Shown here: in pieces, positions 2,788 through 22,311 of the stretch
How positions within the stretch are numbered: the first letter of the stretch is position 1
How the letters are laid out: each line of letters begins with the position of its first letter
Assembly: GCA_021498095.1 (NCBI GenBank)
Contig: JAIZWK010000001.1
Coordinates: 2,130,001-2,162,000 of the forward strand
DNA length: 32,000 nucleotides
Direction of reading: 5' to 3'
From: Candidatus Harpocratesius repetitus
GTDB lineage: Archaea > Asgardarchaeota > Lokiarchaeia > Sigyniarchaeales > Promethearchaeaceae
The notes under the pieces: generated by a model
What the model was told of the DNA's origin: nothing
Databases searched by the model: none
The model's input: only the letters and a program-made list of their open reading frames with translations
Made by a program: the position numbers and the translations under genes

Positions 2788-4971
2788 ATGGTCATGAATA
2801 TAGTCTTGCTCTTATTTTTAATCAGCACTGCCTCCTTGAATATGCTAATTCCTTCCTATTCTACTATTATTGACGAGTTCGCCATTTCAGAATCAGTAAT
2901 ATATCTCCCAGATTCTTTGTCTGTGTTAGTAACTGCATTTGTAATGGTATTATGGGGTTACTATACAGATAAAATTGATAGAAACAAAGTAATTAATTGG
3001 GGGGCAATTTTATCCGTGTTTGGGTTTGTTTTTACCGCTCTTTGTACCAATTTTCTTCAATTGCTTATCGCCCGCATCATCACAGGAGCAGGAATGGGAT
3101 TTGCCATACCCGTTGCTATATCTGTTTTAAGTGACATTGTTCTTCCTGAAGAACGCTCAGGTTTATTTGGATTTCTTGCAATTTTTTCTTCTGTTAGTAA
3201 TGGCATTGGTCAAGGCTTATCTGCATTTTTAGGACCATTGAATATTTTTGGTTTCGGATGGCAAATTACTCCACTAATTTTATCTTTTCTTGCTCTTATT
3301 GCAGTATTCCAACTTTTATTTGTCAATCTTCCCGATGTGGGTGCAAAGGAAGAAAGCTTAGCGAATATTCATGAATTTGAAGAAGTAGGATATGAATATA
3401 AGATTAATCAGCGCCAGCTAGTGAAACTTATTCAAAAGCCAACTAATAAATTCTTGATTTTAAATGGTTTTTTTTCCATAATTCCAGGAACTATCATTAT
3501 TTTTTCTCTTATTACAACATTTTCCCGAGAGATGCTGTATGTACTTCCTGAAAATATAAGAACGCAAGTTTCTACATTAATGGCAGGAGTAGCGAGTTTT
3601 GGTTATATTATTGGAAGTATTGTTCTCTCATGGTATGGAGATCTGCTTTACAAAAAAAATAGGAAAAATCGCGCTAGATTGGCTTTTATTTCTAACATTA
3701 TTGCAATTCCATTATGTATATTAATGATTTTTGAATTAAAGCCTATTTCTCTTGAAAATATGCCTGTTTATCCTGATCCTATTCCTACTGAAGAAATTAC
3801 CAAATTTATTTTACTTACCGTTTCTGCTATTTTTCAAAATTATCCAAATTATATTTTTTATATGATTTTTTCATTCTTTGGAACATTTTTCAGTGCAGGA
3901 ATGGTGATAAATAAAAATGCTGTTATGGTGGATGTGAATTTACCTGAGCATAGAGGAACAGCTTCTTCTTTCTTTCAATTAACCGAACAAGTCGGAAAAA
4001 GTGTTACATTAATGCTTACAAGCTTTTTACTGAGTATTGTAATTACTTATCAGAGACTTTTGTATATAAGTTTGATATTTTGGATTCCTTCTGCTCTATT
4101 ATGGTTATTGACTGTAAAAGCAATAACAAAAGATATTGATGAAAAAAATAGAATACTTAGAGAAAGACAGCAGATGACTCTAATTGATTACATTTTTGAA
4201 ATTAATATTGAAATTGATCGAGCCATACAAATAGTTCATGATGCTAAAAATAAAATTGTAAAAGAACCTCAAAATGCCTTAAAGATGATAGATAAAGCGA
4301 TATTACATTTAACACGAATTACAGAAAATGCCTCCAGACAAAAAATTGCAGATTTAGAAAGTCATTCACAAAATTTACTTGATCGTGCGAAACTTTTCCG
4401 GGATAATCTCAAAGAACTATTGGAGCTTCAAAAATTTGAAGATTTACCATATCTTTATCAGTTGATTGATGAAACTTGGGAAAAAAGTGATTTTGGAAAA
4501 ATTGAAGTATTATATGAAAGTGGTTATTTAAAAGTCGTTGAGGCGCGTTTGCATAGATATTATAATCCTATTGAATGCATCGAAATTTTACAAGATGCAA
4601 TTAGTATTTTTGATAAAGTAATTAGATTGGCTTCTGATAGAGTCGTAGAAGAAGGTATTAAGCGCTTAACAAAGGATGAAGAAGAATTGCAACAACGAAT
4701 TCATAATTTGATTATTTTGGCTCAAAAATCAAAATCAAACACAGAAGTATTAAAAGATAAATTAAACTCTATTATTCACTCGCTTCTAAGAGAAGATTTG
4801 ACCATGAAGCAATTACAAAGTGTTATTGCTTTAACTTCGGAATATGGATTAAAATTGGAAGATATAATTGAAGAAAGTTTTGATAAACGCATTTTAAGAA
4901 GATTCCAAAGAGCAATGAATCAAATAAATAATCTTTTCCGTGCTTATGATGAATGGCAAACACGTGAATAA
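2788..4971 (+). CDS. MFS transporter (about 12 TM) fused to a ~270-aa cytoplasmic all-helical tail with two MIT-like repeats
   Basis: MFS motif A WGYYTDKIDRNK, ARIITGAG, EERSG, and in the second half YGDLL and PEHRGTAS. Hydrophilic helical tail from about aa 455. Confidence 0.85.
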   Translation: MVMNIVLLLFLISTASLNMLIPSYSTIIDEFAISESVIYLPDSLSVLVTAFVMVLWGYYTDKIDRNKVINWGAILSVFGFVFTALCTNFLQLLIARIITGAGMGFAIPVAISVLSDIVLPEERSGLFGFLAIFSSVSNGIGQGLSAFLGPLNIFGFGWQITPLILSFLALIAVFQLLFVNLPDVGAKEESLANIHEFEEVGYEYKINQRQLVKLIQKPTNKFLILNGFFSIIPGTIIIFSLITTFSREMLYVLPENIRTQVSTLMAGVASFGYIIGSIVLSWYGDLLYKKNRKNRARLAFISNIIAIPLCILMIFELKPISLENMPVYPDPIPTEEITKFILLTVSAIFQNYPNYIFYMIFSFFGTFFSAGMVINKNAVMVDVNLPEHRGTASSFFQLTEQVGKSVTLMLTSFLLSIVITYQRLLYISLIFWIPSALLWLLTVKAITKDIDEKNRILRERQQMTLIDYIFEINIEIDRAIQIVHDAKNKIVKEPQNALKMIDKAILHLTRITENASRQKIADLESHSQNLLDRAKLFRDNLKELLELQKFEDLPYLYQLIDETWEKSDFGKIEVLYESGYLKVVEARLHRYYNPIECIEILQDAISIFDKVIRLASDRVVEEGIKRLTKDEEELQQRIHNLIILAQKSKSNTEVLKDKLNSIIHSLLREDLTMKQLQSVIALTSEYGLKLEDIIEESFDKRILRRFQRAMNQINNLFRAYDEWQTRE

Positions 4972-5068
4972 TTAAAAAAATGATCACCAAATCACATCTA
5001 AAAATCCAAATTTTATCTTAAATTAAAGAAATTGTTTGAAATAAAATAAAATTTTTAGAAGAAGTATT

Positions 5069-8000
5069 TTGAGTTCATTTAGAATGTTAAAAATTGAAAG
5101 ATGTCCGTTTTGTAATGCTTTACTTGAAGAATCATTACAAAATATACCAAAACAGTGTAGTAACAAGAAATGTAGAAGTTACACTTTCGTTCCTGGTAAT
5201 CGTGTTCAACACAGATTTAATCAAGACTTGGGAATTGGAATTATTTCAGAAATTCTCTATTATTTAAAAAAAAAAAAGAATGAAAAATATCGAGATTCAA
5301 ATAATCAATTCAGCTTAAGATATAAAAAAAGAATTAACAAGAACTTTATTCCTTCTCTTTCTTCCACTTCTGATTTTATTTTAGCACCAGAAATGGACAT
5401 TCACGAGTTAAATTCACCAAAATCCTTTTCAAAAGACCAATTTTTCGAAAAAATTGTTATCCAATTTGATGCATATTCTTCTCAATCTGTATATCCCCAA
5501 GATATTGTTCATTTTTTATGGCCAATTGGCCAAAAAATTCGATTTTACGAACAAATCTCCTTTGATGGTCCAATCAATTCTTCAAACATTAAAATTGGTA
5601 TAATTCAAAATAGGAATCTTCACCATGCAGATGGAATCATTCGTTATCAAGTTCAATTAACTAATGGTAAAAATATTTGGATAAAGGAACAAACAATAAA
5701 GGAATCAGTCAAAAATCCAATCGAAGAATTTTATGATAAACAACTTTCATTTTCGCTTACATTCCTTCTCCGGATTTGGAGTCTCCAATTTCTTGATTTA
5801 TACAGCAGTAATTATATTAAAATAGTAACCAACTCAAGATTGTCTCTTCTTCCACATCAAGTTTCAGTTGCCCACCATCTTTTACAACAAAACGAGGCGC
5901 GTATGATCTTAGCAGATGAAGTCGGATTGGGAAAAACAATTGAAGCTGGAATTTATATTAAAGAAATGATAGCGCGCCGACTTGCTAGAAGAATTTTAAT
6001 CATAACACCAGCCAGCCTTTCTTCTCAATGGGAATTTGAAATGGAGAATAAATTCAATTTATCATTTATTCGGCTTGATTCTCAAAGATTAAAGCAGACA
6101 GAAATAAATTTTTACACTGGGAACTTTATAAATAAGAAAACTGGAGAGGAATACACTTTATGCTCTGTTACACTTCAATTTGCACGATTGCCCCAATGTT
6201 CTTCAAAATTACTTCAAGTTGAATGGGATATCGTTATCTTTGATGAAGCACACCATCTCCGTAGATATTTAACGAATGTGAAGACAGAACTCTATCGAAC
6301 TACCTTAGCCTATGATTTAGCTGAACAACTTGCCCAAAAAAGTCACAATCTTTTACTCTTAACTGCTACTCCTATTCAGCTTCACTCATTTGATTTATAT
6401 TCACTAATCTGCTTGCTGAATCCATATCGATTTCCAACTTTTGATAGCTTTGAATCAGAACGAAAAAATTTGGTTATGCTGAATCTCATAATTTCTCAAT
6501 TACTTAATTTTTCCAGAATTAGTGCCTTTGAACGCAGATCTCTGATATATAATATTTTAAACTTCCTTCCTAACTATCAAGTTAAAGAATTAGATGAAAA
6601 TTTGAAAAAGAAATCATTTCGTACGACTTTAGTTCAAACTTTAGAAAAAAAACATTTCTTAAGTGATTTTGTTATTCGTAATAGAAGAAAAAGGGTATTT
6701 CCTCATCATAAAATCAAACGAATCCCAAAAATCATAGATGTTACATTAACACCAGAAGAACTAAAGATATACAACAAAATTCATTTGTATTTAGCTAAAA
6801 TCTATTCCCAGAATTTTGAAGGTGGGAATACTGGAATGGGTTTTATTATGGTCATTCTTCAAAAGCTCTTAACAAGCTCAGTTCCTGCAATTCTTAAAAG
6901 TTTACAAAGGCGAATTCATTATTTAGAAGAAAATAAAGAAATGCTTACAAAATTCCAAACTGAAATTGTAATTAATCAAGAATTTCAAGAAGAAGAAGTA
7001 GAATTAGATTTAGATTTGGGAATTGAAGAATTTGAATTGGAAGATCGGTTAATTTATTATCGACGTAAACACAAGATGAAACCTAAAAAAGAAAATGAAC
7101 TTAATATTAAAGATCACATCAAAATTCTTAAGGAATTTGTGGGTGATTTGAAATCTTTGACTATAGATTCAAAAGCAGAAAAATTACAAGAAATAATTGA
7201 AGAAATATTATCAAATAATCCAAAAGAAAAAATTATAATCTTTACTCAATTTAAAGCGACCTTATTTTATCTTTCTGAGATATTTCAGAATAAAAAAATA
7301 AATGTCGCTCATTTCCATGGAGATCTCAATGAAAATCAAAAAAATAGAGAAGTTCAAAAATTTAAAACCACTCATTCTATTCTTTTATCTACCGAAATAG
7401 GGGGTGAAGGTAGAAATTTTCAGTTCTGCCATATTATCATAAATTATGATCTTCCTTGGAATCCAATGCGCCTAGAACAACGAATTGGGAGATTGGATCG
7501 TATTGGTCAAACTAAAGATATTTTAATTTACAATTTTTATATTGCAGATACAGTTGAATCATCAATTGTAACAGCAATTATTGATCGTATCCATCTTTTT
7601 GAAGAATCTATCGGATCTTTAGAGCCTATTTTAGGTAGTATTGAAAAACAAATAACCGACTTAATTTTAAGAGAAGATGAAATACCATATAAATTCAGAT
7701 TAGAAGAAGTTATCTCAAAAACTACGGATAAAATTGAAGAAGTATACGCAAAGTTGGATGATTTTATTTTAGATAAAAAATCCTTTCAAACATCAATGCT
7801 ATCTCAAAATCTCCAAGATGATAATATTATTTCTCACGAAGATATTCTTCAATTCTTTCACACTATTAATGATCTTGCAGGAAAAAATTCTCTTATTACT
7901 ATAAATTCAAAAAAATCTACTAACTATAGTAATTCTCTATTTGTTGATGCGTTTAAATTGGTAAAAACAAAAAAATATGATTCAACAGAATTTTGGCAAA

Positions 8001-17013: not shown

Positions 17014-18369
17014 TTAGAATGGATGAACTAATCGAACTTTCCCATTACCTAAATCTTCAAAAAGACCAACTTTTACAAATTGATCAATGTATTTCTTTAT
17101 TGTAACTGTTGGGAGACCTAAGGCACCTTTTAATAAATCTACATTCATTTCACCTACATCTTTAACCAATAAGAAGCATTTAAAAAGAGGTTCTTGTTCA
17201 AAAAGTGTTAATAACCCATCTAAATTTTGGATTTTTCCTAAATTTTTCTCACGAAATTCAATCATATCCTTATTTTCTGCTTCATATTTGGAAAGTTTTT
17301 CTTCTAATTTTTCTTTTTCAGCGACTACTTGTTCATATTTTTTTAATAATTCATCCTGCTTTATTTTTAGATCTGAAAAACGTTTTTCAGCTAATGAAGT
17401 TTTCTTTTCAAATTCTTTAAATTGGAGTTTATAATCGATGATTTCTGAATCTAGGTTATCTGCTTTTTCAAGAAGTTCAGATTTTTCTTTAAAATGCTCT
17501 TCTTTTAATTGTAAAATACGTTCTTCATTGCGTTTTTTAATCTCTTGAATTTCTTCTTGTAAATGATTTATTCTATTTTCATAATTTTTTTTCATATCAT
17601 CAATTTCAGAAAATTCTGATTGATATTTTGTAATTTTCATTTCAAGTTCATGATTTTTTTCTGTTAAAGAATGAATTTCATCTTGTAATTGTTTAGTTTC
17701 TTTTCGGAATTCTAATTCCATTTTTCCTATTCGTGCTTGATATTCATCTTTTGTTGAAAGTGTTTGACTCCTTAGTTCTTTGGTTCTCTCTTCAAAATCG
17801 CGCTCCATTTTTTCAATACGTGCTTTATATTCATCTTCAGTTTCCATAAATTGTCTTAAACGCGCTTGTACTCTTTGGGCGAATTCTTCTTCCATCTTTT
17901 GTAAATTTTCTTGAGTTCGGTCGTTAGCCATTTTTAATTCTTGTATTTCGCGATCTTTTGCACTAATTACACCTTTTTGCTCAATCAATTTGGATTTTAA
18001 CTCACCTACTTGTGTGATATATGTGTTTAAATGTTGATTAAATCCATCAATCTGCATTTGTGTATTTTTTAATTGAGCTTCTTGTTGTGCAATAGTAGCA
18101 TAAGCCATTTCTAATTGATTGTCTTTTTCATTTAACTCAGCTCGCATTTCGCCAACCATACGCTTTAAAGCTTCAACATCTGCAGGTAAATCATACATAT
18201 TGCTAATTCGGCTTTGTAATTCGTCAATTAACTTTTGCTGTTCTGCCATCTCATTTTTTTGTTTTACAATTAATTGCTTTAACCGATCAATTTGTGCTTG
18301 TTTTTGTGCAATTTCTAATTCTTCCTGCCCAATACTATCAATTATGTTCTCTAAATCCTTATCGCCCAT
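17014..18369 (-). CDS. Long coiled-coil protein with C-terminal winged helix-turn-helix
   Basis: About 380 aa of E/K/Q-rich helix with only one Pro, then MNVDLLKGALGLPTVTIKKYIDQFVKVGLFEDLGNGKVRL (HTH plus wing). Confidence 0.75.
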   Translation of the reverse strand: MGDKDLENIIDSIGQEELEIAQKQAQIDRLKQLIVKQKNEMAEQQKLIDELQSRISNMYDLPADVEALKRMVGEMRAELNEKDNQLEMAYATIAQQEAQLKNTQMQIDGFNQHLNTYITQVGELKSKLIEQKGVISAKDREIQELKMANDRTQENLQKMEEEFAQRVQARLRQFMETEDEYKARIEKMERDFEERTKELRSQTLSTKDEYQARIGKMELEFRKETKQLQDEIHSLTEKNHELEMKITKYQSEFSEIDDMKKNYENRINHLQEEIQEIKKRNEERILQLKEEHFKEKSELLEKADNLDSEIIDYKLQFKEFEKKTSLAEKRFSDLKIKQDELLKKYEQVVAEKEKLEEKLSKYEAENKDMIEFREKNLGKIQNLDGLLTLFEQEPLFKCFLLVKDVGEMNVDLLKGALGLPTVTIKKYIDQFVKVGLFEDLGNGKVRLVHPF

Positions 18370-18531: not shown

Positions 18532-19056
18532 TTGAAAAAAATGCCAGGTAAAACTGAAACAAGGAACGAATTTGATTGGGATGGTGTGGTGACCCAAATT
18601 CATGATATTATTGGTTCTAATACTGCAATATTTAACAAATACGGAATAATTTTAGCTTCAAAAATCGCTCAATTTCAAAAAGGAAGTCTTATATCTCCAA
18701 CAATTTTAGATTTCATTGATCGAAAACAGACTTTGATTAAAGAGCTTCAAGTTGAATACATTGATTGTATGGTATTAGAAGGAGATAAAGAGAATATTGT
18801 TTTTACTTTTGGTGAAAACTATAATTTAATGAGTAATATTCCAAAAAATGTCGATTTGGCAAAATATATGCCAAGTATTACAAGTTTCTTACGCACTCTT
18901 CATAAAACTGCTCCTAACAATGATTATCAGACTTCATTTAAACTACTTTCATTAGAAGATGAATTCGAAGAAATGAAGAATAGCACAGAAGAACAAGTTG
19001 GAAAAGAGAGATTTCCCATTTTTAAACATCTCATTAAATACTTAACAAAAAAGTGA
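18532..19056 (+). CDS. Roadblock/LAMTOR/MglB-like protein with C-terminal extension
   Basis: Helix, TAIFNKYGIILAS hairpin, helix, three strands (IDCMVLEG, NIVFTFG, YNLMSNI), helix: the roadblock secondary-structure order. Confidence 0.55.
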   Translation: MKKMPGKTETRNEFDWDGVVTQIHDIIGSNTAIFNKYGIILASKIAQFQKGSLISPTILDFIDRKQTLIKELQVEYIDCMVLEGDKENIVFTFGENYNLMSNIPKNVDLAKYMPSITSFLRTLHKTAPNNDYQTSFKLLSLEDEFEEMKNSTEEQVGKERFPIFKHLIKYLTKK

Positions 19057-19202: not shown

Positions 19203-21206
19203 ATGCTACGACAAGTTTTCATCACAAAAGATGGGGAAATTATCTTCAGGCGTGATTTTGGAAAAGCACTTGATCTAGAAGGTTTTAATCAAGCTTATAA
19301 GCAAATTATGAAAGAAGCATCTAAAATTGGGGCAGATAAAACTAAGTACCATGACTATTTTCAATATCGAATAGGATATCTTACAGAACCAGAGAAAAAT
19401 ATCATCTTCTTCTTCGTTTCAGATCTGTCTGATAAATTTGCAAATATTCAAAAAGAACTTGAAAGATGTCGAAAAGAATTTCTCGATATGTTTGGACCTA
19501 TCTTAGATGATCAAATAGATCAAGATACATTTGAGATTTTTGACCCAACCATTGAACTAATTCATAAAAATTTACGCCCAAAAATCTCTTTGGTCGGTTT
19601 TTCTGGTGTGGGTAAAACAACAATCACCCGTTTGATTACCGCACAAGATATCCCGATGGAACATGTACCTACCATAACAGGAGATATCGGGACAATCAAG
19701 ATCGGTAAACTTCATTTCCATCTATGGGATTTTGCCGGCCAAGAACAGTTTTCCTTTTTATGGAACAATTTTATTAAAGGTTCTGATGCAGTCTTGTTAA
19801 TTACGGACTCAACATTGGAGAACTGCGAGAAAAGTCGATATTTCACAGAATTGATAAAGAAGGAAGCACCTTATGCACACACTGCTTGTATTGGTAATAA
19901 GCAAGATCTTCCAGATGCGATGCCAATTGCAGATATTGAGCGGATTTTAGGTATGAAAGCTTATTCAATGATAGCAGTTGACCCCGATAATCGAGATAAA
20001 ATGATAACAATCATTGCTGATGTTTTAGAAATGTCTGGTGAAGTTTCTCCATTATTAAAACCTTTAATTCAGCGAGATAAAATAATGAAACAAGCTGAAG
20101 AAGCACTTGAAGAGGGGAATTTTCAGCAAGCATTACATTTGTTTGAAGAATTGGCGGATCTTAGTTTGGAATTAGGTGATGACCGGGTAAGTCAAGATTT
20201 TCATGAAAAAGCTATGAAAATTAAAGCAATCCTTCAGCAATTTGAATCAAAAAGTGAAGAAAAAAAGAAATCAGACTCTATTCAAAATAAAAAAGAAGAA
20301 AAAACTAATGGTAAAGAATTAATCTCTCCACCTGTACCTAAGACCTCTGTCACACCTCCACCTGCACCTAAGACCTCTGTCACACCTCCACCTGCACCTA
20401 AGACCTCTGTCACACCTCCACCTGCACCTAAGACCTCTGTCACACCTCCACCTGCACCTAAGACCTCTGTCACACCTCCACCTGCACCTAAGACCTCTGT
20501 CACACCTCCACCTGCACCTAAGACCTCTGTCACACCTCCACCTGCACCTAAGACCTCTGTCACACCTCCACCTGCACCTAAGACCTCTGTCACACCTCCA
20601 CCTGCACCTAAGTCCTCTGTCACACCTCCACCTGCACCTAAGTCCTTTATCACACCTCCACCTGCACCTAAGTCCTTTGTCACACCTCCACCTGCACCTA
20701 AACCAAAAACAATTCCGGTAGATCAATCAGATCTTAAAATATCAAAAGGAGTAAGTATTCCAAAATCCAAAACCACTTCATCTAATAAGGAAGATAAACT
20801 TGAGCAATTATTGGAGCAGGCAAAAGCTAAAAAGCTGAAAAAACAAGCTGCACAAAGCCAAACTAAATCCATTCAACAAGAAGTATCGAGTCAATCAATA
20901 AAACACTCTATTATTCCACCATTAGCAACTAATTCAACTTCAAGTACTTCGAATAGTGCTTCATCAATAGAAAACACATTACAACCTCAATTTTCAAGTG
21001 AACAATCATCCACAAATAGTGATATGAGAGCTCTAATTACAGATTTAAAGATTAAAGTAGCAAATGTAAATAAAACTTTACTCGATATGGAAATGCAGAA
21101 TATTACGGGAGAGCTTTCAGATGAAGATTTCGCCAATAAATCAAAGCGACTTGAATCAGTGAAAACTCGACTTGAACAACAAATTCAAGATTTAGAAAAA
21201 ATTTAG
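19203..21206 (+). CDS. Multidomain Arf-like small GTPase: longin - GTPase - TPR/MIT-like helices - Pro-rich repeat - Ser/Thr linker - SHOCT-like coiled coil
   Basis: G1 GFSGVGKT (aa132, nt 19596), switch I VPTIT, G3 WDFAGQE, G4 NKQD. N-terminal ~120 aa are longin-like (VFITKDGEIIFRRDF...IIFFFVSD...ELERCRKEF). Confidence 0.88.
   Translation: MLRQVFITKDGEIIFRRDFGKALDLEGFNQAYKQIMKEASKIGADKTKYHDYFQYRIGYLTEPEKNIIFFFVSDLSDKFANIQKELERCRKEFLDMFGPILDDQIDQDTFEIFDPTIELIHKNLRPKISLVGFSGVGKTTITRLITAQDIPMEHVPTITGDIGTIKIGKLHFHLWDFAGQEQFSFLWNNFIKGSDAVLLITDSTLENCEKSRYFTELIKKEAPYAHTACIGNKQDLPDAMPIADIERILGMKAYSMIAVDPDNRDKMITIIADVLEMSGEVSPLLKPLIQRDKIMKQAEEALEEGNFQQALHLFEELADLSLELGDDRVSQDFHEKAMKIKAILQQFESKSEEKKKSDSIQNKKEEKTNGKELISPPVPKTSVTPPPAPKTSVTPPPAPKTSVTPPPAPKTSVTPPPAPKTSVTPPPAPKTSVTPPPAPKTSVTPPPAPKTSVTPPPAPKTSVTPPPAPKSSVTPPPAPKSFITPPPAPKSFVTPPPAPKPKTIPVDQSDLKISKGVSIPKSKTTSSNKEDKLEQLLEQAKAKKLKKQAAQSQTKSIQQEVSSQSIKHSIIPPLATNSTSSTSNSASSIENTLQPQFSSEQSSTNSDMRALITDLKIKVANVNKTLLDMEMQNITGELSDEDFANKSKRLESVKTRLEQQIQDLEKI
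20326..20700 (+). repeat. Coding tandem repeat, 30-bp unit AGACCTCTGTCACACCTCCACCTGCACCTA, 12 full copies plus a partial copy
   Basis: Nine identical units at 20341-20610, three variant units at 20611-20700, partial unit at 20326-20340. Encodes (KTSVTPPPAP)n. No spacers. Confidence 0.98.
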
Positions 21207-21264: not shown

Positions 21265-22311
21265 TTAAATTATTTGTTCAAAAATCTCATCAATGTTTAT
21301 ATTTTTAAAGATTTCCTCTGGTTTGATTTCCACATCATCAATATCGGATATTTGTTTGATTATTTCTAAATCGATTAATTTTTGAAAATTGATAATGTTA
21401 ACATCTGATTTATTTAAAGAATCTGAATCTTTTTGTTCTCGAATTGAAATTTCTTCATCTTCATTTGGAGAATTATCAGAGTCTAATGAATTGGCTGATT
21501 TCTTAAAAATATTTGATAAGAATCTCTTCTTTCTTTCCTTATTTTTTCCACTTTGATCTGGATTAGGAGCGTCTTCTAATTGCTCAAATCCATCTGGATC
21601 AATTAATTTTTTGTTATATAGATAACATTCCAGAAGATCATCATATAAAAGCATCGGAACAAAAGCTTTTTGAAATGTTTTCATTCGTTTTAAATCAAAA
21701 ATATCTGTCTGAATAATATCTGGAAAAATATAATCTCCTTTTTTTTTATAGAGATTTTTTAATATTTTTTTTTTTTTGTAATCAATTGAAATTTTATTTT
21801 CAGAGAATTTTGAATTACAGTATTCAATAATTTCATCAATATGACCAATTAATGCTTGTTTAAAATCTAAACCTTCTAAAGATCGAATATACGCATTTAA
21901 ATAAGAATCAAGAATAAATGACAAATCTTCACTATAAGAATGAATTCTTGATACTAAGTTTTTGGATTCATTCCACCAAATTTCAATAAGATCGAAGGAT
22001 AACTGCTTAAAAAATAGTGTTCTATATTTTTGTTCTGTATATTTAAGCAAATTTGTAATTAATAATGAATATAATCGTGTGTAATCATATGAAAAGTTTT
22101 TATTTTGAAAGGAAATTATACTTTTTTTATGTGGAAAAATGAATAATGTAGGTAGTTTTGATATAATTCGATCAATTCTAACAGGCATAGGTAGAATTGG
22201 AAAGGGAAAATTCGGACTTTCAATTTGATCTATAAAAAAAAACATGGGAGCTGCTTCATTTTTTCTATGAATTAGTTTTGGTTTTGATGTTGAGGCACTT
22301 CTATTGAACAT
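21265..22311 (-). CDS. Hypothetical protein with low-complexity acidic C-terminal insert
   Basis: 348-codon ORF downstream of dppF on the same strand. No family recognised; start uncertain. Confidence 0.65.
   Translation of the reverse strand: MFNRSASTSKPKLIHRKNEAAPMFFFIDQIESPNFPFPILPMPVRIDRIISKLPTLFIFPHKKSIISFQNKNFSYDYTRLYSLLITNLLKYTEQKYRTLFFKQLSFDLIEIWWNESKNLVSRIHSYSEDLSFILDSYLNAYIRSLEGLDFKQALIGHIDEIIEYCNSKFSENKISIDYKKKKILKNLYKKKGDYIFPDIIQTDIFDLKRMKTFQKAFVPMLLYDDLLECYLYNKKLIDPDGFEQLEDAPNPDQSGKNKERKKRFLSNIFKKSANSLDSDNSPNEDEEISIREQKDSDSLNKSDVNIINFQKLIDLEIIKQISDIDDVEIKPEEIFKNINIDEIFEQII

Follow-up and report, generated by a model that had tools for sequence, protein, structure and literature searches.

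An open reading frame (ORF) of 667 aa on the forward strand (19203..21206) of the window, a 32,000-nucleotide stretch of the genome of “Candidatus Harpocratesius repetitus,” raises the question of what a small GTPase might do with a longin domain at its N terminus and a long proline-rich tail at the other end. Longin-GTPase fusions are a eukaryote-like hallmark of the Asgard archaea, and we know of none that has a known partner or role. The gene is this organism's copy of a near-universal lokiarchaeial protein, whose ortholog in strain MK-D1 (WP_147664160.1) was catalogued by Tran et al. (2024) as “LGX,” with X standing for an unknown domain (PMC10933270). Neither the MK-D1 nor the L. ossiferum ortholog is mentioned by accession number in the main texts searched; both accessions are found only in the supplement to that paper. 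The reading favored here, with a probability of roughly 55%, is that LGX is a longin/Roadblock-regulated GTPase switch mounted on a flexible tether whose length varies. The strongest functional clue is a conserved Roadblock-like gene directly upstream, which had been missed in the initial annotation of this DNA. The two genes comprise the following features:

18541..19056, + strand: partner gene, 171 aa from the ATG at 18541, with an alternative TTG start at 18532 (synteny, profiles)
19203..19574, + strand: longin domain, residues 1-124 (AF2, Foldseek, VIA)
19575..20033, + strand: Arf-like small GTPase domain with a noncanonical G5, residues 125-277 (Pfam, AF2, VIA)
20034..20258, + strand: invariant connector (SPLLKPL..RD) and three-helix unit ending in LGDD, residues 278-352 (AF2, alignment)
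20259..20783, + strand: proline-rich arm 1, residues 353-527, 31% Pro (composition)
20326..20701, + strand: in-frame 30-bp tandem repeat, 12.5 copies, encoding PPPAPK(T/S)S(V/F)(T/I) (TRF)
20784..20888, + strand: Pro-free K/Q/E island, residues 528-562, EDKLEQLLEQAKAKK... (0% Pro; alignment)
20889..21011, + strand: Ser/Thr-rich arm 2, residues 563-603, 34% Ser (composition)
21012..21206, + strand: family-specific C-terminal helix-turn-helix or short coiled coil, residues 604-667 and the stop codon (alignment)

The protein thus starts with the longin domain, the Arf-like G domain, and the connector with its three helices, and its second half consists of the Pro-rich arm, the Pro-free island, the Ser-rich stretch, and the helix-turn-helix end. 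The initial annotation had the ORF boundaries exactly and the domain parse essentially right, and its broader concept, in which one chain combines a GTPase switch with a multivalent arm, holds. However, it counted six parts: the parts that it named are there, but the protein has more than six, because a conserved island, overlooked at the time, sits inside the supposed disorder. Hydrophobic segments are absent from both the GTPase and the upstream protein (maximal KD19 values of 1.27 and 0.75, respectively), so both appear to be soluble.

The N-terminal domain gave no match in Pfam and was identified by structure. The AF2 model of residues 1-124, built from 52 orthologs, has a pLDDT of 89.7 and a five-stranded sheet in the topology bb-a-bbb-a-a and superposes on solved longins. 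The best Foldseek match in the PDB was the VAMP7 longin (TM score of 0.72 to 0.75, E value of 6e-5), followed by AP sigma subunits, Sec22b, and SRX; the fold matches include SRX (5ck3 and 1nrj) and LAMTOR subunits, and VIA aligned the domain with 4afi_B at a Z score of 14.3. These data bear out the longin assignment that had been made from the sequence.

The second domain is a member of the Arf family by its HMM score and motifs, with 66.9 bits against the Pfam cut-off of 22.3 (PF00025; E value of 2.1e-18, residues 123 to 253); Roc and Ras are its other Pfam matches, and TIGR00231 exceeds its cut-off as well. Its closest solved relative in sequence is Arf1 (3.4e-15), with which it shares the NKQDLPDAM stretch; in VIA, Arf1 was matched with a Z score of 15.9 and the Asgard protein 8oul with a Z score of 13.3. 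As noted in the initial annotation, the G1 (GFSGVGKT, residues 132 to 139), G3 (WDFAGQ, with the catalytic Gln180), and G4 (NKQD, residues 232 to 235) motifs are intact; these motifs and Thr157 are unchanged across 76 orthologs. The G5 region, flagged there as atypical (AYSMIAV), indeed reads YSMIAV in place of the canonical [ST][CS]A[KLT]; nevertheless, Tyr254, Met256, and Ala258 are invariant, so this region is atypical but constrained. In the AF2 model, pLDDT falls below 50 at residues 136 to 139, 146 to 162, and 178 to 186, which represent the P-loop and the two switch regions. Since the 124-aa longin domain occupies the region before the G domain, the protein has no free N-terminal amphipathic helix of the Arf type. 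Tran et al. aligned the MK-D1 ortholog with their Rag-like/Arf-like class (PMC10933270). The match to the Rag/Gtr family (PF04670) covers only residues 127 to 184 and, at 21.6 bits, is below the cut-off of 22, and the AF2 model contains no Roadblock domain C-terminal to the G domain.

The three helices that were expected behind the G domain are present in the AF2 model (residues 286 to 303, 307 to 323, and 327 to 348) and, together with the connector, include the invariant residues Ser282, Leu284, Leu285, Pro287, Leu288, Arg291, Asp292, and Leu324 to Asp327. The spacing between the P-loop and the LGDD motif is 192 aa in nearly all of the 120 homologs listed and 193 aa in three. The “TPR/MIT-like” label given to this unit reflects sub-threshold resemblance: TPR_8 and TPR_2 were hit in 21 and 15 of the 53 orthologs, respectively (best E value of 0.0033), and MIT (PF04212) in 7 of the 53 at E ≤ 1 (best E value of 0.0079). 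The MIT score was 13.7 bits, where the cut-off is 30, and when the profile of the three helices was aligned by hhalign with the MIT domain of the same genome, the probability was 0.4%. An Atlas look-up with residues 283 to 352 yielded nothing usable. A VIA-wide search with the model of residues 1 to 352 retrieved only single-domain matches (GTPases and longins), with no solved multidomain analog of this region; the three helices were barely probed by it. Short paralogs of 345 to 346 aa end right after the three helices, which indicates that residues 1 to 350 form a unit. In one genome (G207), two of the three short paralogs that were read are located behind GTPases of the Gtr1/RagA family, an arrangement that again pairs a longin-GTPase with a family known for its Roadblock-type C-terminal domains.

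The GTPase has more than 714 homologs, and 74 of the 76 sampled genomes of the window's order (counting that of the window) contain a full-length match. At ≥585 bits, such matches are present in 4 of 6 and 69 of 69 sampled genomes of its two families, and orthologs are encoded by both cultured lokiarchaea, P. syntrophicum and L. ossiferum. The full-length form is normally present in a single copy, and the N-terminal 352 residues show ∼70% mean column identity across the order. Both the GTPase and its partner are missing from the assemblies of two metagenome-assembled genomes (MAGs) of the same genus (92% and 87% complete) and one of the same family, so the pair is either dispensable or hard to assemble.

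The region between the three helices and the C-terminal domain (residues 353 to 603) is of low complexity, as had been predicted, but is 251 aa long rather than ∼270 aa and comprises arm 1, the island, and the Ser stretch. The 30-bp repeat in arm 1 shows 98% matches and no indels in TRF, and direct reading found ∼9 of its copies to be identical in DNA. The closest ortholog (P0003, 93% identical) carries the same decapeptide repeat in ∼5 copies versus about 13 here. A Pro-rich linker is found in all 97 full-length orthologs analyzed, with a length of 97 to 382 aa and a mean Pro content of 21% (range, 8 to 37%); its absence from close orthologs, named in the initial annotation as a sign of neutral expansion, was not observed. 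The sequence of the linker and its repeats vary among these orthologs, of which 26 have tandem repeats of their own with periods of 4 to 27 aa. The island, in contrast, is the sole part of the linker in which column occupancy reaches ∼100%; it aligns with the LNPEDFMVK.RPK..VPKDAK.KL..SPF segment of the larger clade and is a candidate for a short docking helix. A MIM1-like reading of the island was considered and dropped: we take its lokiarchaeial form to be loosely similar to a MIM1-type helix, but the form found in the larger clade is different and not MIM-like.

Among proline motifs, PPAP and PPPPP were over-represented in the orthologs relative to shuffled sequences (77 versus 18.8 and 51 versus 14, respectively), as was [VIL]xxPPxP (172 versus 40.8), a pattern that was picked after seeing the data. 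The Tsg101-type P[ST]AP motif was unconvincing, with 28 occurrences versus 12 expected but in 14 sequences versus 10.6. There were no occurrences of FPPPP or PPxY in the 97 orthologs, and the longest proline run in the protein encoded at 19203..21206 is 3 residues. Searches of the same genome with the Pfam profiles for profilin, WW, UEV, and SH3_1 gave no matches; the controls were equally silent for profilin, WW, and UEV and produced only sub-threshold matches for SH3_1, so these searches speak neither for nor against readers of the arm.

The terminal hairpin proposed initially is real: the last 64 aa, among them the GELSDEDF turn, align as a conserved block in 81 orthologs, with Met631 and Gly636 invariant. 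This domain occurs once in the genome, and only 4 proteins shorter than 366 aa contain it, all of them likely fragments. Its description as SHOCT-like was not borne out, as the SHOCT domain (PF09851, cut-off of 27 bits) had no match in the protein encoded at 19203..21206 (E ≤ 0.01; control genomes do match) and reached 20 of the 81 orthologs at E ≤ 1 (best 3e-4), all below the cut-off. Sub-threshold matches were also obtained with the CdvA-like coiled coil (PF18822), which scored 22.2 to 22.5 bits against a cut-off of 30 (44 of 81 orthologs, best E value of 3.6e-6), and with GvpG (32 of 81 C termini). The hairpin shares with the SHOCT and CdvA-like domains the turn motif G-[ED]-[IL]-[ST]-x-[ED]-[ED]-[FL]-x-x-K between two helices but differs from them in that every match is below the curated cut-off.

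The upstream gene encodes a protein of 163 to 174 aa and lies directly in front of the GTPase gene on the same strand in 28 of the 30 fetched loci. It also adjoins the GTPase gene in MK-D1, L. ossiferum, and a Hermod-labelled MAG, and by coordinates the two genes are adjacent in at least 60 genome pairs, although synteny this strong within a single order may be due in part to common descent instead of selection. None of the 493 homologs of the partner has a Pfam domain. Profile comparisons, by contrast, consistently point to Roadblock/LC7: the top two PDB matches of the family profile were Roadblock/LC7 proteins (E values of 0.0014 and 0.039), hhalign against seven bona fide Robl_LC7 proteins of the same genome gave a probability of 82.5% (E value of 9.9e-6, 73 columns) versus 0.35% for a longin control, and Atlas feature matches of the partner reached Robl_LC7-bearing clusters at 0.87 to 0.91. 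The Pfam Robl_LC7 model itself matched 1 of 32 family members (E value of 0.085), and no match was obtained in hhalign with a single Rag-like protein of 300 aa, a comparison that is uninformative because the template was a single sequence. At the profile level, the partner therefore belongs to a diverged, unannotated Roadblock/LC7-like family that Pfam does not recognize. The two genes are separated by 146 bp, so their co-transcription is only presumed.

In the reading favored here, the first ∼350 residues of LGX would constitute a self-contained nucleotide switch, for which a longin:Roadblock platform probably serves as regulator or assembly site. The longin half of this platform would be present in cis, and its Roadblock-like half would come from the protein encoded directly upstream. 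The C-terminal half may serve as a flexible proline-rich tether, whose length and repeats would drift freely via replication slippage; it would carry one short conserved docking island and end in the hairpin. The hairpin would most likely self-associate or dock to a partner; self-association is suggested by its weak resemblance to coiled-coil and SHOCT-type domains. Such an arrangement could couple the GTP/GDP state at one end to an attachment or oligomerization point tens of nanometers away.

Alternatively, the arm may be low-complexity sequence that expanded without selection; function would then reside in the N-terminal 350 aa alone, perhaps together with the hairpin, and the linker would be tolerated as slippage-prone filler. 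The unconserved sequence of the linker and its length of 97 to 382 aa fit this explanation, which nonetheless has to accommodate the fact that every full-length ortholog analyzed keeps at least 97 aa of linker with a mean of 21% Pro. The repeat copies are near-perfect even at synonymous sites, which indicates a very recent expansion, and their number differs between orthologs that are 93% identical, but the repeat units of different orthologs, despite independent origins, have converged on PP.P-type cores. Likewise, there are functional-looking short paralogs without the tail, yet in the full-length proteins the linker surrounds a conserved island and is followed by a conserved domain, which requires it to stay in frame and retain its flexibility at the least. 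An expansion free of selection appears rather unlikely. In the proposal of the initial annotation, a polyproline arm gated by the GTPase would recruit profilin-actin in the manner of formins, VASP, or WASP or otherwise feed the Asgard actin machinery; the attraction of this proposal lies in the 13 PPPAP units, the over-represented proline motifs (PPAP, PPPPP, and [VIL]xxPPxP), and the terminal coiled coil, which is also part of the VASP design, VASP being multimerized by such a coiled coil. However, no FH2, WH2, EVH1, or other actin-binding domain was detected next to the arm (Pfam, E ≤ 1), proline runs do not exceed 3 residues, FPPPP occurs in none of the 97 orthologs, and none of the five gene contexts inspected contains an actin, profilin, or gelsolin gene. 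Moreover, although the VASP peptide PPPAPPLPAAQ is weakly bound by Thor and Heimdall profilins (PMC8410842), Loki profilin-1 and -2 are described in the same article, which cites Akil and Robinson (2018), as not binding VASP polyproline. An actin connection has no direct support and is quite improbable.

The suggested ESCRT link, whereby an MIT-like three-helix unit and a CdvA-like C terminus would connect the GTPase to ESCRT-III/Vps4, found no direct support and is the least credible of these alternatives. The MIT and CdvA-like matches that speak for it (7 of 53 and 44 of 81 orthologs, with best E values of 0.0079 and 3.6e-6) remain under the curated cut-offs (13.7 and 22 versus 30 bits); the three helices showed a probability of just 0.4% with the organism's own MIT domain. 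The island, presumably loosely MIM1-like in its lokiarchaeial form, is unlike MIM in the larger clade (LNPEDFMVK.RPK...), and the conserved synteny includes no ESCRT genes. One further version of the tether, a long shot, is a prokaryotic GTPase-gated multivalent unit formed by the two genes. With the GTPase in its GTP state on a longin:Roadblock platform, the arm and the island would attract a partner that reads PPII helices, be it profilin-actin or an unknown reader, and the assembly would be multimerized by the hairpin. If true, this unit would be, in function, a forerunner of eukaryotic scaffolds of the formin/VASP or Rag/SR type within the lineage that includes the cultured Lokiarchaeia.

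Given its high conservation and its nearly constant pairing with the Roadblock-like gene, LGX is a good testable candidate for a core cell-organizing switch, although none of these results connects it with actin or ESCRT. The dedicated Roadblock-like neighbor offers a concrete pair in which to look for GAP/GEF or platform activity, and the long form and its arm-less paralogs provide a natural comparison of what a Pro-rich tether adds to a GTPase switch.

Several known systems resemble parts of this architecture. For the G domain, the best matches in both sequence and structure come from Arf1/Arl and the Asgard ArfR (HodArfR1, PDB 8oul), which share with it the WD..GQ and NKQDLP.AM motifs. They differ in the canonical G5 and in the free N-terminal amphipathic helix, a defining Arf feature (Vargova et al., bioRxiv 2024.02.28.582541) that is replaced here by the longin domain. 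In formin FH1 regions and Ena-VASP proteins, too, multivalent Pro-rich repeats separate a regulatory end from a coiled-coil end, and the VASP peptide that binds profilin contains a stretch similar to PPPAP; the arm of LGX, in contrast, has Pro runs of ≤3 residues and an unconserved sequence and is not accompanied by FH2, EVH1, or WH2 domains. MglB-MglA, the Ragulator and Rag C-terminal domains, and SRX-SRβ combine a small GTPase with a longin-fold and Roadblock-like module, and SRX-SRβ similarly pairs a longin fold with an Arf-like GTPase; longin/Roadblock dimers are the usual GTPase platforms (PMC10933270). In the present system, the longin domain is fused upstream in cis, the Roadblock-like component is encoded by a gene of its own in a presumed operon with the GTPase, and neither protein has a transmembrane segment. 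The closest counterparts are the Asgard longin-GTPase fusions, which include the LG/LGX architectures of P. syntrophicum MK-D1 (PMC10933270) and five longin-ArfL proteins from Lokiarchaeum (Klinger et al. 2016, as cited in PMC4917890) and in which the N-terminal longin is followed by an Arf-like/Rag-like G domain in the same order. In MK-D1, 26 GTPases carry a fused Roadblock or longin domain (PMC10933270). Unlike in the published catalogue, X is resolved here into the connector with three helices, the Pro-rich tether with its island, and the C-terminal hairpin. Finally, whereas the GTPase genes of MK-D1 are generally not found in operons with Roadblock or longin genes (PMC10933270), LGX has a conserved Roadblock-like gene directly upstream, which tempers the published impression of MK-D1 GTPases as lacking operon-encoded regulators.

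The long GTPase is a 667-aa protein encoded on the + strand at 19203-21206, exactly the frame and length of the initial annotation, in a window with a G+C content of ∼30% that its genes and their best database matches assign to the Lokiarchaeia among the Asgard archaea. Its closest relative is a protein of "Candidatus Harpocratesius sp." (93% identity), and its start codon can be regarded as settled, since the orthologues have the same MLRQV N terminus. The protein consists of the following segments:

Residues 1-124, + strand: longin domain
Residues 125-277, + strand: Arf-like G domain (Pfam Arf, TIGR00231, Arf1 match, invariant motifs)
Residues 278-352, + strand: connector and three helices (conservation, AF2 model)
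Residues 353-527, + strand: proline-rich arm (31% proline)
Residues 528-562, + strand: proline-free, K/Q/E-rich island
Residues 563-603, + strand: serine-rich stretch (34% serine)
Residues 604-667, + strand: helix-turn-helix end, or hairpin (conservation in 81 orthologues)

Fusions of longin domains with lokiarchaeal Arf-like GTPases have been on record since 2016, according to PMC4917890, which cites Klinger et al. The GTPase architectures of strain MK-D1 were catalogued with AF2 by Tran et al. 2024, in whose supplement WP_147664160.1, the MK-D1 orthologue, appears as an "LGX" protein of the Rag-like/Arf-like class (PMC10933270). Vargova et al. and PMC11914678 set "ArfL" apart from true Arf relatives and described some Asgard Arfs with longin N termini. 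Relative to the literature searched, and as far as that search extended, the new elements are the resolution of the "X" of LGX into parts, the proline tether that runs through the whole family together with the island and hairpin, the paralogues lacking the arm, and the conserved, probably Roadblock-like partner.

The longin assignment made in the initial annotation is borne out by the fold. Pfam gave no match over residues 1-124; in the AF2 model, based on 52 orthologues, this region has a pLDDT of 89.7 and the topology ββ-α-βββ-α-α, and its best match among solved structures is the VAMP7 longin domain (TM 0.72-0.75; VIA Z score for the longin domain, 14.3), with AP sigma subunits, Sec22b, SRX, and LAMTOR subunits among the other fold matches. 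The G domain is Arf-like, as initially proposed: it scores 66.9 bits against Pfam Arf, matches TIGR00231 above its cut-off, and has Arf1 as its best solved relative (E value, 3.4e-15; VIA Z score of 15.9, versus 13.3 for the Asgard HodArfR1), sharing with Arf the NKQDLPDAM motif. The P-loop, T157, the WDFAGQ motif with the catalytic Q180, and NKQD do not vary among 76 orthologues. The G5 position, YSMIAV, is indeed non-canonical, although Y254, M256, and A258 are invariant. In the AF2 model of the G domain, the P-loop and switch regions are the only stretches with a pLDDT under 50. Transmembrane-like segments are absent from the long GTPase and from its upstream partner alike.

Residues 278-352 open with the invariant connector SPLLKPL..RD, followed by helices at 286-303, 307-323, and 327-348 and an invariant LGDD around their end. 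Among the 120 homologues listed, nearly all have a spacing of 192 aa from the P-loop to LGDD, and three have 193 aa. The three helices had been described as TPR/MIT-like; the helices are there, but no family match rises above threshold (TPR_8 in 21, TPR_2 in 15, and MIT in 7 of 53 orthologues), and comparison of their profile with the MIT domain of the same genome gave a probability of 0.4%.

The arm contains 12.5 copies of a 30-bp unit (98% matches, zero indels) encoding PPPAPK(T/S)S(V/F)(T/I); some nine copies do not differ from one another in DNA sequence, and those that have diverged are found toward the 3' end. This decapeptide also occurs in the 93%-identical orthologue, with about five copies there against thirteen in the window protein. 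Two overlapping ORFs on the − strand at 20282-20726 (133 and 135 aa, with repeats of GAGGGVTEVL and RCRWRCD) arise from reading this repeat in the reverse frame and were rejected as genes. In the 97 orthologues for which the two linker anchors were identified, the linker spans 97 to 382 aa with a mean of 21% Pro (range, 8 to 37%) and an unconserved sequence; 26 of them carry tandem repeats of their own, whose periods range from 4 to 27 residues, so that arm expansions were recurrent and independent. The only linker block that aligns across all 97 is the island (LNPEDFMVK.RPK..VPKDAK.KL..SPF in the larger clade), which the initial description of the linker as disordered had not separated out. 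Beyond the linker, M631 and G636 of the hairpin are invariant among 81 orthologues. This domain occurs once in the window genome; among other short proteins, only four probable fragments were found to carry it. It had been called SHOCT-like: a conserved helix-turn-helix is present, but the window protein has no SHOCT match at E ≤ 0.01, and the only Pfam matches, all sub-threshold, are to a CdvA-like coiled coil (44/81 orthologues; 22 bits in the window protein against a cut-off of 30), GvpG (32/81), and SHOCT (20/81).

Neutral expansion would account for the repeat and for the variation in linker length. However, close orthologues without the arm, which the initial annotation would have taken as a sign of such expansion, did not turn up, all 97 carrying a Pro-rich linker, and neither this universality nor the island nor the conserved domain beyond the linker is explained by it. 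The case for a formin/VASP-like role in actin regulation, also proposed initially, comes only from the proline motifs: PP.P-type cores exceed composition-preserving shuffles (observed versus expected, 77 versus 18.8 for PPAP and 51 versus 14 for PPPPP), as does [VIL]xxPPxP (172 versus 40.8 counts; 57 versus 30.8 sequences), a pattern picked after the data were seen and whose excess is inflated by relatedness and repeats. None of the 97 orthologues has FPPPP or PPxY, the classical eukaryotic ligands, and enrichment of P[ST]AP was not convincing against shuffles. Against an actin link, the long GTPase has no actin-handling domain, its proline runs are short, and Loki profilin-1 and -2 did not bind VASP polyproline; Thor and Heimdall profilins bind it weakly (PMC8410842). 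The MIT and CdvA resemblances behind the suggested ESCRT connection are sub-threshold, and the one direct profile test, against the genome's own MIT domain, failed.

More than 714 homologues were found, under source-given lineage names that include Lokiarchaeota, Promethearchaeota, Thorarchaeota, and Hermodarchaeota. Of the 301 genomes sampled from the phylum, those of a single order gave full-length matches, taken as at least 585 bits over positions 1-350: 69/69 genomes in one of its families and 4/6 in the other, the window's own. Matches were weaker in two more families of the class (1e-134 and 1e-91), and the rest of the phylum has only distant longin-GTPase matches (≤1e-65). The two Lokiarchaeia in culture encode orthologues, of 569 aa in P. 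syntrophicum MK-D1 and 653 aa in L. ossiferum. The window genome has one full copy. The long GTPase and its partner are both missing from two assemblies of the same genus (G089 and G094; completeness, 92% and 87%) and one of the same family (G311; 80%), where the genes may truly be gone or may have dropped out near the repeat during assembly or binning; a 292-kb Harpocratesius sp. contig carries the 93%-identical orthologue.

Many genomes of the order also encode paralogues scoring ∼470 to 545 bits, with reading frames of ∼345 to 390 aa. The three that were read (345-346 aa) end right behind the three-helix unit, making residues 1-350 a unit that exists with or without the tail. Two of these three, both in genome G207, lie immediately 3' of Gtr1/RagA-family GTPases of 300-305 aa, in a tandemly duplicated two-gene unit (gap of 16-21 bp; paralogue of 345 aa):

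L045 (G207:C28:438500-445500), ORFs 965-1867, 1884-2921, 3100-4017, and 4039-5076: Gtr1/RagA-family GTPase, then arm-less longin-Arf-like GTPase, twice

This arrangement suggests a Rag-like/longin-GTPase pairing parallel to that of the Roadblock-like protein with the long form. Another paralogue of the longin-GTPase-three-helix module, now decayed, lies ∼1.4 kb past the window end (L006, G000:C1:2163433-2164443, − strand; 164 bits to the family profile; 4 TGA and 3 TAA internal stops); in two genomes of the same genus, the sequences that match it best are intact frames of ∼300 aa (G089:C21:782-1588 and G094:C367:2257-3081).

The gene pair and its neighbors are arranged as follows:

17014-18369, − strand: 451-aa coiled-coil protein, divergent to the pair; no Pfam family above cut-off
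18541-19056, + strand: partner, 171 aa
19203-21206, + strand: long GTPase
21265-22311, − strand: 348-aa protein, convergent with the pair; no Pfam match

The partner (163-174 aa across the family) is encoded directly upstream of the long GTPase on the same strand, and proteins 34-49% identical to it occupy this position in MK-D1, L. ossiferum, and a Hermod-labelled MAG. The listed start is TTG 18532 (18532-19056); orthologue N termini suggest that the real one is ATG 18541. In 28 of 30 loci fetched with the partner as the query, the GTPase follows immediately, one of the two others lying at a contig end, and the adjacency agrees by coordinates in at least 60 genomes. All 493 family members are named "hypothetical," with zero Pfam domains. 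Judged from sequence profiles, the partner is probably Roadblock-like: its top two PDB matches are Roadblock/LC7 proteins (E values, 0.0014 and 0.039), comparison with the seven bona fide Robl_LC7 proteins of the window genome gave a probability of 82.5% (E value, 9.9e-6; 73-column core; 0.35% for the longin control profile), and its language-model features point to Robl_LC7 and MAPKK1_Int clusters. Its C-terminal 16-18 residues form a conserved, basic, moderately amphipathic helix (mean μH, 0.43; net charge, ∼+3).

The 451-aa protein is 50-52% identical to same-position genes in L. ossiferum and MK-D1, with the first ∼180 residues nearly identical; the 348-aa protein, 41% identical over 237 aa to its L. 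ossiferum counterpart, accompanies the pair there. Neither is conserved beside the pair at the inspected loci of the other clade. On both larger-clade contigs inspected, the region 1.5 to 4 kb downstream of the long GTPase encodes an aspartate kinase and a stand-alone Arf/Ras-like GTPase of ∼175 aa:

L003, 8481-9008, and L004, 5902-6426, − strand: larger-clade downstream positions

In the mechanism favored here, the partner would bind the first 350 residues, which would act as a switch regulated through longin:Roadblock contacts. The tail would serve as a flexible Pro-rich spacer, free to drift in length, bearing one conserved island that may dock on a cellular target, and the terminal hairpin could mediate self-association (oligomerization) or anchoring. 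SRX-SRβ is one small-GTPase platform of the kind envisaged. The dimeric platforms on which small GTPases are regulated are typically of longin and Roadblock fold, as in MglB-MglA, Ragulator-Rag, and TRAPP (PMC10933270). The long GTPase family shows the features of such platforms, with a longin domain in cis, a Roadblock-like protein in an operon-like pair, and arm-less paralogues accompanied, where read, by Rag-family GTPases, so that a longin:Roadblock-regulated switch is the simplest reading.
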